Positions 3,905 through 4,330 of a stretch of DNA of 7,042 bases are shown piece after piece (the first letter of the stretch is position 1; each line of letters opens with the position of its first letter). Under the pieces are notes generated by a model. The model made no database searches. It saw only the letters and a program-made list of their open reading frames with translations, and was not told the DNA's origin. The position numbers were made by a program, and so were the translations under genes. Location: IMG/VR virus record IMGVR_UViG_2636416140_000004; one strand, 5' to 3'. Origin of the DNA: a virus (lineage: Duplodnaviria; Heunggongvirae; Uroviricota; Caudoviricetes).

Positions 3905-4053
3905 AATAGCGTTTTCTTATCGGTATCGGTAAGATTGCTGCGGGTGCTTGAGGCTGTCTGCCTCGGGCATGCCACTGTAAGGCAGACAGAGAAAAGCCCC
4001 AGTTAACATTACGCGTCCTGCAAGACGCTTAACATTAATCTGAGGCCCAATCT
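3905..4053 (+). promoter_or_regulatory. hok promoter region and hok mRNA 5' leader (tac/ucb-like elements)
   Basis: -10-like TAAGAT at 3930..3935 with a weak -35; leader from about 3941 (GCGGGTGCTTGAGG) resembles the plasmid R1 hok mRNA 5' end as recalled; perfect 10-bp hairpin 3954..3963 / 3980..3989 with 16-nt loop. Confidence 0.5.
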
Positions 4054-4062
4054 ATGTCTCAC
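3990..4062 (-). ncRNA. sok: Candidate Sok-like antisense RNA (type I antitoxin) overlapping the mok start
   Basis: On the minus strand, -35 TTGCCT (complement of 4092..4097) and -10 TAACCT (complement of 4069..4074) with a 17-bp spacer, at the position where sok promoters sit relative to mok/hok; transcript would be antisense to the mok SD and start (4042..4056). 3' end not resolved. Confidence 0.4.
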
Positions 4063-4266
4063 AAATGTAGGTTAGCCTCTTACGTGCCGAAAGGCAAGGA
4101 GAAGCAGGCTATGAAGCAGCAAAAGGCGATGTTAATCGCCCTGATCGTCATCTGTTTAACCGTCATAGTGACGGCACTGGTAACGAGGAAAGACCTCTGC
4201 GAGGTACGAATCCGAACCGGCCAGACGGAGGTCGCTGTCTTCACAGCTTACGAACCTGAGGAGTAA
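4054..4266 (+). CDS. mok: Mok-like reading frame (N-terminally extended Hok, 70 aa) that couples hok translation
   Basis: ATG at 4054 with GAGG 8 nt upstream; in frame with hok. The N-terminal extension MSHKCRLASYVPKGKEKQA resembles what I recall of MokC. Confidence 0.55.
   Translation: MSHKCRLASYVPKGKEKQAMKQQKAMLIALIVICLTVIVTALVTRKDLCEVRIRTGQTEVAVFTAYEPEE
4111..4266 (+). CDS. hok: Hok/Gef-family type I toxin, 51 aa (HokD/RelF-like sequence)
   Basis: MKQQKAMLIALIVICLTVIVTALVTRKDLCEVRIRTGQTEVAVFTAYEPEE: single TM helix followed by the conserved RKDLCE periplasmic motif; SD AAGGAG upstream of the ATG at 4111. Confidence 0.85.
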   Translation: MKQQKAMLIALIVICLTVIVTALVTRKDLCEVRIRTGQTEVAVFTAYEPEE

Positions 4267-4315
4267 GAGACCAAGCGGGGGAGAAATCCCTCGCCACCTC
4301 TCATGTGTCAGGCAT

Positions 4316-4330
4316 CCTCAACGCACCCGC
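4316..4330 (+). promoter_or_regulatory. fbi-like 3' element of hok mRNA, complementary to the 5' end
   Basis: CCTCAACGCACCCGC (4316..4330) pairs with GCGGGTGCTTGAGG (3941..3954) with one bulged C, as expected for the hok mRNA fold-back inhibition (tac-fbi) interaction. Confidence 0.5.

Follow-up and report, generated by a model that had tools for sequence, protein, structure and literature searches.

The window, i.e., the complete stretch of 7,042 nucleotides of viral DNA that was analyzed (IMG/VR record IMGVR_UViG_2636416140_000004), carries on its plus strand a hokD-type toxin gene, hok, at 4111–4266 (51 codons plus stop). Its product, MKQQKAMLIALIVICLTVIVTALVTRKDLCEVRIRTGQTEVAVFTAYEPEE, is a Hok/Gef protein (Pfam PF01848, HOK_GEF; E = 3e-23, 81.6 bits with a cut-off of 22) that is identical to the protein named HokD in RefSeq and 100% identical across 80 prophage contigs, and in near-identical E. 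coli loci the same ORF is annotated as “type I toxin-antitoxin system toxin HokD.” A region of 521 nt around the gene has matches in 4722 of the 5426 complete E. coli genomes, the best of which are 98% identical. The ORF list contains a second reading frame, mok (4054–4266, plus strand, 70 codons), in frame with hok. The equivalent of mok is annotated in phage Rac-SA53, and the Pfam Hok/Gef domain covers its residues 25–66. The motif GAGG at 4042–4045 (plus strand), 8 nt 5′ of the mok ATG, reads as the mok Shine-Dalgarno (SD) sequence. The leader is matched on the plus strand by Rfam RF01794 at 3942–4116, over the full length of the model (positions 1–157 of 157; 118.1 bits, gathering score 59, E = 3e-27). 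The neighbors of the hok cassette encode DUF551, DUF1367 and DUF1364 proteins and a Q-like antiterminator, which places it in the nin region of a lambdoid prophage. This prophage is degraded by insertions of IS600 (1323–2589), which interrupts a LysR-type gene, and of IS1 (at about 4772–5469), both of which lie outside the hok cassette.

In all of the ~60 homologous loci a −10-like hexamer occurs exactly 6 nt 5′ of the sequence GGG(T/C)GCTTGAGG, and the six spacer bases vary. This hexamer is TAAGAT in the window (3930–3935, plus strand) and TAGAAT, TATAAT, TATATT or TAGTAT in other loci, and in the R1-type plasmid locus L083 we find TATGAT followed by 6 nt and GGCGCTTGAGG. From this fixed spacing the start of the hok mRNA is placed at G3942, which is most likely its first nucleotide and is also position 1 of the RF01794 match. 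By the same −10 spacing, we take G3942 to correspond to the 5′ GGCGCUUGAGG of the R1 hok mRNA. Most prophage copies possess a −35 box (TTGGCG or TTTGCG), a 17-nt spacer and the −10 box TAGAAT, but no good −35 box was found for the hok promoter in the sub-lineage to which the window belongs (the window, L001, L047, L092 and L097). Because of the weak −10 box and the lack of a recognizable −35 box, expression of hok in this sub-lineage may be low. The sub-lineage is Shigella-like. A scan for consensus promoters missed the hok promoter as well as the sok promoter; their positions were assigned from conserved spacing and invariant bases and are, therefore, predictions. At the 3′ end, the terminator scan gave an intrinsic terminator of the hok mRNA at 4334–4359 (plus strand), with an 8-bp GC-rich stem, a GCTTCGGC-type loop and a T-run, the hairpin of which (4334–4353) also forms in the fold of the full-length transcript.

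The two ends of this predicted transcript are complementary. An earlier, sequence-only reading of the window had described a segment at 3941–3954 that pairs through 14 base pairs, with one bulged C, with a segment at 4316–4330 just before the terminator hairpin. The 3′ arm, CCTCAACGCACCCGC, indeed occupies exactly 4316–4330 and ends 3 nt before the hairpin, and the 5′ arm, GCGGGTGCTTGAGG, has to be moved one base to the left, to 3940–3953. As strings of DNA the two arms do form 14 Watson-Crick pairs, with C4322 bulged. In the RNA, however, the helix probably comprises 12 bp (3942–3953 with 4316–4328), since a start at G3942 excludes the two outer pairs. A 14-bp RNA helix was rejected: the pairs G3940–C4330 and C3941–G4329 reach upstream of the inferred +1 and show no covariation, and both are kept in only 2 of the 17 sequence types across the family. 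The 5′-terminal 12 nt, GGGUGCUUGAGG (3942–3953, plus strand), are here called tac (translational activator element), an assignment based on pairing probabilities of at least 0.97, on the RF01794 match from position 1 onward and on covariation. Their partner CCUCAA(C)GCACCC (4316–4328, plus strand; the C in parentheses is the bulged C4322), assigned by folding, shuffling and covariation, is called fbi (fold-back inhibitory element).

Minimum free energy (MFE) folding of the transcript, which the sequence-only reading had suggested as a check, pairs the two segments both in 3940–4357, the whole fold of which has −177.6 kcal/mol (z = −7.67 versus shuffles), and in 3942–4357 (416 nt), where all 12 pairs are present, each with a probability of 0.969–1.000. 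Barring 4316–4328 from pairing carries a penalty of 14.4 kcal/mol. The duplex of the tac 12-mer with the 67-nt 3′UTR has an energy of −21.1 kcal/mol, a value reached in 14 of 5000 dinucleotide shuffles of the 3′UTR and in 11 of 5000 shuffles of the 12-mer itself. Among all 12-mers from nucleotides 1–325 of the mRNA, tac is the one that pairs best with the 3′UTR, no other being better than −17.3 kcal/mol. The exact 13-mer occurs a single time in the window. An inverted-repeat search recovered only an ungapped sub-alignment of the arms because of the bulged C4322.

Conservation of the helix was examined in homologous loci. The 80 prophage (viral) loci, with their identical Hok, hardly vary in tac and fbi and thus speak for conservation and not for covariation. 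Sequence diversity was supplied by 53 loci from species-representative genomes (Escherichia, Shigella, Kluyvera, Photorhabdus, Pantoea, Erwinia, Citrobacter, and others), the Hok proteins of which are 60–100% identical, and by eight plasmid loci, including R1-type, Vibrio and Aeromonas loci. The plasmid loci L087–L090 were excluded from the structure tests, as they had no Rfam match at the gathering score and partial or no HMM matches. Close relatives of the window differ very little in tac and fbi; their bulged base is either C or T, and the few changes within the helix give G-U pairs (C4327T in L029; C4316T in L014 and L055). For nearly all of the 111 unique loci RNAduplex identified an equivalent helix 45–75 nt past the stop codon, the two arms of which had changed in concert; in L103, L133 and L135 it found no fbi within range, and these loci look disrupted. 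For example, tac GGGCGCTTGAGA is matched by fbi TCTCAAGCGCCC in Photorhabdus, where the bulge is absent, GGGTGCTTGAGA by TCTCAACGCACCC in Kluyvera, GGGTGCTTGAAG by CTTCATAGCACCC in Citrobacter youngae (L136), GGGTGCTCTTGG by CCAACGAGCACCC on the Vibrio plasmid, and GGCGCTTGAGG by CTGAAGCGCC on the R1-type plasmid (L083).

In a MAFFT alignment of 69 full-length mRNAs (A2) the 12 helix pairs are standard in 91.5% of the cells, compared with 38–51% when the 3′ partner is slid by 1–3 columns. Both sides have changed in 21 cells, a count as high as this being reached in none of 500 column shuffles, and column pair 4/451 is U-A in 52, C-G in 12 and U-G in 2 sequences. This column-wise count underestimates the distal half of the helix, as homologs without a bulge (e.g., Photorhabdus) are shifted by one column. 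Because of this shift in register, an alignment-free swap test was added, in which each tac bound its own 3′UTR on average 4.3 kcal/mol better than did the eight variants of tac from other loci; when each variant was represented once, none of 20000 permutations reached the observed total. RNAalifold, when applied to the 69 sequences of A2, did not recover the long-range helix, of which 2 of the 12 pairs were kept, and chose a local hairpin at the 5′ end. Across the 69 homologs the helix has been kept through compensatory changes; their sources are Escherichia, Kluyvera, Photorhabdus, Erwinia, Pantoea, Citrobacter, Vibrio, Aeromonas and R1-type plasmids.

The tac element has further conserved partners. 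In folds of the first 35–49 nt of the mRNA, tac pairs with 3961–3973 (−21.2 kcal/mol); this predicted hairpin of the nascent transcript, in which the partner of tac lies at 3960–3973 (plus strand) and which is the one chosen in the RNAalifold consensus, is metastable. Its 11-bp core is paired in 97% of the 69 homologs and shows 32 double changes, a number that none of 500 shuffles attained. When the RNA is 61 nt long, 3942–3949 of tac pair with AAGCCCC at 3994–4000 (plus strand), assigned from folds and conservation as ucb, the upstream complementary box, which is the anti-SD of mok. This tac/ucb stem, which leaves U3945 unpaired, does not vary among the 69 homologs and is 98.8% paired in them. 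Once the 3′ end is complete in the folding series, tac is paired with fbi. Nucleotide 4 of tac, the only unpaired base of the tac/ucb stem, changes together with its partners in both the metastable hairpin and fbi, the combination being T/A/A in 51 and C/G/G in 10 sequences.

The fold of the full-length RNA has GCCCC of ucb (3996–4000) paired with the mok SD region (4042–4046), the SD itself being held by 3997–4000. Once tac/ucb forms, the SD is held by 4076–4079, part of the motif GCCUC at 4075–4079 (plus strand), which we assign from the fold and its conservation as dcb, the downstream complementary box; this pairing is found in 3′-truncated RNA with tac/ucb enforced, and GCCTC is nearly invariant. 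No clean switch to tac/ucb emerged when 3′-truncated RNAs were folded by MFE. For RNAs ending at 4296–4315 the open form with tac/ucb and the closed form lie within ~1 kcal/mol of each other, and the ensemble favors the closed form, with a probability of tac/ucb of 0.13–0.18. With energies so nearly equal, thermodynamics alone do not demonstrate the activating refolding. Between hok and fbi, a hairpin with an 8-bp stem at 4275–4294 (plus strand) is present in all folds and covaries (A2 columns 376–407, e.g., AU:35/GC:29). By analogy with R1 (PMC9841398), this hairpin is likely to protect the 3′ end of the processed mRNA.

On the minus strand, a sok promoter is predicted at 4069–4097 from its position and invariant bases, with TTGCCT (4097–4092) as −35 box, a 17-nt spacer and TAACCT (4074–4069) as −10 box. 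This site presumably has the position of the sok promoter of R1. The TTGC of its −35 box and A2 and T6 of its −10 box are invariant in the 69 homologs; the consensus scan missed it because only 3 of the 6 bases of the −10 box match. A Sok-type antisense RNA of ~75 nt (3988–4062, minus strand, both ends being predictions) would begin at G4062, 7 nt downstream of this putative −10 box, and would overlap ucb as well as the start and the SD of mok. The predicted RNA folds into a long hairpin followed by a U-rich tail, GGGGCUUUUCUCU (−33 kcal/mol, z = −5.83).

Taken together, it is highly likely that the two segments are tac and fbi in the mRNA of a type I toxin-antitoxin system, a hok/mok/sok cassette of the hokD type that a decayed lambdoid prophage carries in its nin region. 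The fold-back architecture of a hok mRNA, which had been proposed from the sequence alone, is supported by the Pfam and RF01794 matches, by the folds, by the covariation in 69 homologs and by the R1-type locus L083. When compared with the published hok structure, as the same reading had also proposed, the elements agree with the R1 model (PMC9841398), and the folding series reproduces its closed full-length form, its metastable hairpin and, in short RNAs, its tac/ucb stem. The computations made here show which locus this is; they also show the helix, with its conservation, covariation and thermodynamic dominance in the full-length RNA, and the conserved alternative partners of tac. For the ends of the transcript, 3′ processing, expression of Sok and killing we follow the R1 paradigm, and the steps that it would entail at this locus are conditional on that analogy. 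In the nascent transcript the metastable local hairpin with 3961–3973 would first hold tac. As soon as the 3′ end is made, tac would pair with fbi, and the 12-bp helix would close the ~416-nt transcript into the fold-back form, in which ucb (3994–4000) would sequester the mok SD (4042–4045) and leave no access for ribosomes or Sok. Slow trimming of the 3′ end would remove fbi, upon which tac would switch to ucb and the freed mok SD would pair weakly with dcb. The processed mRNA could then meet one of two fates: Sok RNA (minus strand, about 4062–3988) would bind it and the mRNA would be destroyed or, where the unstable Sok has decayed, mok and hok would be translated, presumably coupled as in the R1 model, and the membrane toxin would kill the cell.

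Other readings of the complementarity have to be weighed against this one. As the two arms flank the entire cassette, which is mobile among prophages, plasmids and chromosomes, they could form an inverted repeat that bounds the cassette at the level of the DNA, or they could match by chance, and in neither case would they reflect RNA structure. The probability of a chance match in one sequence is, however, about 0.003, and the helix recurs across genera with compensatory changes. The single changes observed in close relatives of the window give G-U pairs, which are tolerated only in the plus-strand RNA. Furthermore, the helix starts exactly at the +1 defined by the promoter, the two bases outside it being without covariation, and tac covaries with two other RNA partners. 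We give this reading practically no credence; its DNA-level variant, a terminal inverted repeat of a mobile cassette, was rejected on account of the G-U substitutions and of the bounding of the helix by +1. It is also exceedingly unlikely that the 5′ end of the mature RNA resides mainly in the local hairpin (3944–3954 with 3960–3970) and pairs with 4316–4328 to a minor extent. The local hairpin is favored by the RNAalifold consensus and by its higher number of double changes (32 versus 21 for the long-range helix), and it dominates the predicted ensembles of truncated RNAs. However, the long-range pairs reach probabilities of at least 0.97 in the full-length, single-sequence ensemble, where their removal costs 14.4 kcal/mol, and fbi is conserved and covaries with tac despite its position in a non-coding 3′UTR. 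The published sequential-folding model, moreover, expects both structures (PMC9841398).

Another question is whether a genuine tac/fbi helix would still regulate hok in this prophage. The cassette could be canonical and yet be a relic, silent or non-functional in a decayed and IS-ridden prophage, with a pairing that is no longer regulatory. In line with this, the sub-lineage of the window has no −35 box and a weakened −10 box, the prophage is broken by IS600 and IS1, the chromosomal hok loci of K-12 have been reported to be inactive, and the chromosomal hok loci that were tested did not mediate post-segregational killing (bioRxiv 10.1101/2025.08.07.668861). Nevertheless, both IS elements left the cassette untouched, and all of its elements (tac, ucb, the mok SD, the mok ORF, dcb, the sok promoter motifs, the hok ORF, the 3′ hairpin, fbi and the terminator) are intact and identical or near-identical to those of widespread prophage copies. 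The toxin itself is the same in all 80 prophage contigs, and HokD is toxic when expressed (bioRxiv 10.1101/2025.08.07.668861). We consider it, therefore, unlikely that the helix is such a relic. The hok mRNA could also be derived mainly from phage early transcription by antiterminated read-through; tac/fbi would then be an internal helix of a longer RNA, and release of Hok would be tied to prophage induction and not to loss of the element. The idea derives from the lost −35 box and the weakened −10 box of the sub-lineage and from where the cassette lies, past a two-way terminator (3741–3773) in the nin region, but we regard it as very unlikely.

Since the 1990s, the end-pairing of hok mRNA by tac and fbi has served as a textbook case of how an mRNA is controlled by fold-back and how RNA folds sequentially. 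The hokD-type cassettes of lambdoid prophages have been catalogued in thousands of genomes, and the helix described here has little discovery value. Its value is for annotation: of this locus RefSeq marks the hokD CDS alone, and the window holds a complete and apparently intact hok/mok/sok module in which promoters, tac, ucb, dcb, Sok, fbi and terminator can be placed to the base. In addition, the set of homologs independently reproduces the published coupled covariation, in which one nucleotide of tac covaries with two partners that exclude each other and is left bulged by a third pairing. This makes the coupled covariation at tac a useful positive control for scans for long-range RNA pairing.

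The hokD loci of E. coli are among the closest known systems; thousands of E. coli genomes contain the same cassette, at a DNA identity of 95–98%. The lambdoid phage Rac-SA53 also has the same cassette, with both hok and mok annotated. In K-12, hokD follows relBE and is not known to carry the regulatory leader, and the loci L034 and L038 appear, as far as we can judge, to be of this leaderless type. The copy in the window differs from the K-12 type in being complete. Surveys have revealed multiple chromosomal hok/sok loci in enteric bacteria (PMC1635323), where the chromosomal and prophage loci hokD (relF) and hokC (gef) of E. coli are cited from Pedersen and Gerdes (1999); compared with these loci, the promoter region of the sub-lineage of the window has diverged. 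The location of the window copy in a prophage agrees with the enrichment of hok genes in prophages reported in a Hok catalogue, in which HokD was also toxic (bioRxiv 10.1101/2025.08.07.668861). The Rfam family RF01794 (“sok antitoxin, CssrC”) is matched over its full length, but the match is to the hok-sense strand, and the model describes the leader in its tac/ucb conformation. As it contains neither fbi nor the 3′UTR, it neither tests nor annotates the end-pairing.

Another of the closest known systems is hok/mok/sok (parB) of plasmid R1. In R1 the tac/fbi stem closes the full-length mRNA, in which ucb sequesters the mok SD, and a metastable 5′ hairpin prevents co-transcriptional translation (PMC9841398). 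Slow exonucleolytic processing of the 3′ end activates the mRNA, and this maturation results in the pairings tac/ucb and SD/dcb; Sok then binds, with RNase III cleaving the duplex, and killing follows upon decay of Sok (PMC9841398; for activation by 3′ processing also its references 9, 10 and 12). As referenced in that paper, the tac/fbi model goes back to Thisted et al. (1995), Franch et al. (1997), and Gultyaev et al. (1997), and the “coupled covariation” signature of the hok family to the latter authors (reference 12 in PMC9841398). The order of elements in the window is the same as in R1, i.e., the −10 box, tac at +1, its metastable partner, ucb, the mok SD, mok, the sok promoter and antisense RNA, dcb, hok, the 3′ hairpin, fbi and the terminator. 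The plasmid locus L083, which presumably encodes the Hok protein of R1 itself, has its fbi, CTGAAGCGCC, directly before the terminator as in the window, and its leader is recognized by the same covariance model (88.9 bits, versus 118 bits for the window). The differences are minor. The Hok proteins are only ~41–43% identical, tac is one nucleotide longer in the window (GGGUGC versus GGCGC in R1), and the helix of the window has 12 bp and a bulged C in fbi. In the window mok shares the frame of hok, whereas R1 has it in the +1 frame; the window also has a longer stem-loop between ucb and the mok SD; and its cassette resides in the nin region of a prophage instead of on a plasmid. The tac/fbi helix of the window is, in this comparison, already known, as a member of a thoroughly described family.

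The Rfam model RF01794 matched the window at 3942-4116 on the plus strand, which is the hok-sense strand despite the name of the model ("sok antitoxin"), and its consensus structure shows the leader of the hok mRNA folded in the tac/ucb conformation. Sok RNA is predicted on the opposite strand (about 4062-3988). Further downstream on the plus strand, a 3-bp stem (4244-4246 with 4256-4258) encloses a loop that holds the Tyr47 codon UAC followed by a G (TACG, 4249-4252). This stem shows strong covariation among the 69 aligned full-length hok mRNAs, with one pair occurring as A-U in 35 vs. 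G-C in 29 and another as C-G in 47 vs. U-A in 19. TadA-mediated A-to-I editing, resulting in a Tyr to Cys change, has been reported for hokB, hokC, hokD, and hokE and the hairpin at 4244-4258 looks like such an editing hairpin.

The region directly upstream of hok (3900-3941) contains a diverged promoter region common to a sub-lineage comprising the window and the homologous loci L001, L047, L092, and L097. The -10 element of this sub-lineage is TAAGAT and no -35-like hexamer is present in this region in any of its members, a situation that differs from the majority of the prophage copies, in which a 17-nt spacer separates TTGGCG or TTTGCG from TAGAAT. About 170 nt 5' of the hok start, a GC-rich hairpin of 13 bp with A-runs and T-runs on its flanks (AAAAACCCCGG...CCGGGGTTTTT; 3741-3773, both strands) looks like a two-way intrinsic terminator; this predicted terminator could insulate the hok cassette from upstream phage transcription.

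Insertion sequences occur on both sides of the cassette. IS600 (IS3 family; 1323-2589) has two minus-strand ORFs (1367-2185 and 2221-2523). It truncates the gene for a LysR-type regulator (888-1370) and forms the junction between chromosomal genes and the prophage remnant. On the other side, the transposase gene of an IS1 (about 4772-5469) separates the DUF1367 gene from the hok cassette. The window was not covered to 80% by any E. coli genome, pointing to a Shigella-like source. The phage record PP818812.1, deposited as "Actinobacillus phage vB_Apl-pPE4," matches the E. coli-type lambdoid nin region of the window, hok included, with 96.5% identity, and its assignment to an Actinobacillus host is, given this match, unexpected.

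Some of the homologous hok copies differ on the 5' side, where unrelated sequence takes the place of the leader with tac (L034, L038, and L079); in others, no fbi occurs on the 3' side within 90 nt past the stop codon (L103, L133, and L135). These cassettes appear to have decayed or been rearranged, leaving them unable to form the end-pairing lock. HokD proteins 96-100% identical to that of E. coli were encountered in Acinetobacter idrijaensis, Xanthomonas pisi, and a Ca. Scatousia MAG, i.e., in unrelated taxa, each time on a very short contig (275-2995 nt), and most likely represent enterobacterial contamination of the assemblies.

A single contig of Photorhabdus temperata (L124) carries two hok leaders (556-705 and 1185-1335), about 630 nt apart, indicating that the hok cassettes are in tandem. 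For Photorhabdus luminescens, clusters of hok/sok loci have been reported, with which this arrangement is consistent. In the window, hok and mok share one reading frame (4054-4266, plus strand) and, consequently, translation of mok would yield a 70-aa Hok with an N-terminal extension. This is distinct from the R1-type plasmid locus (L083), where no ATG precedes hok in its own frame; in R1, mok occupies the +1 frame.
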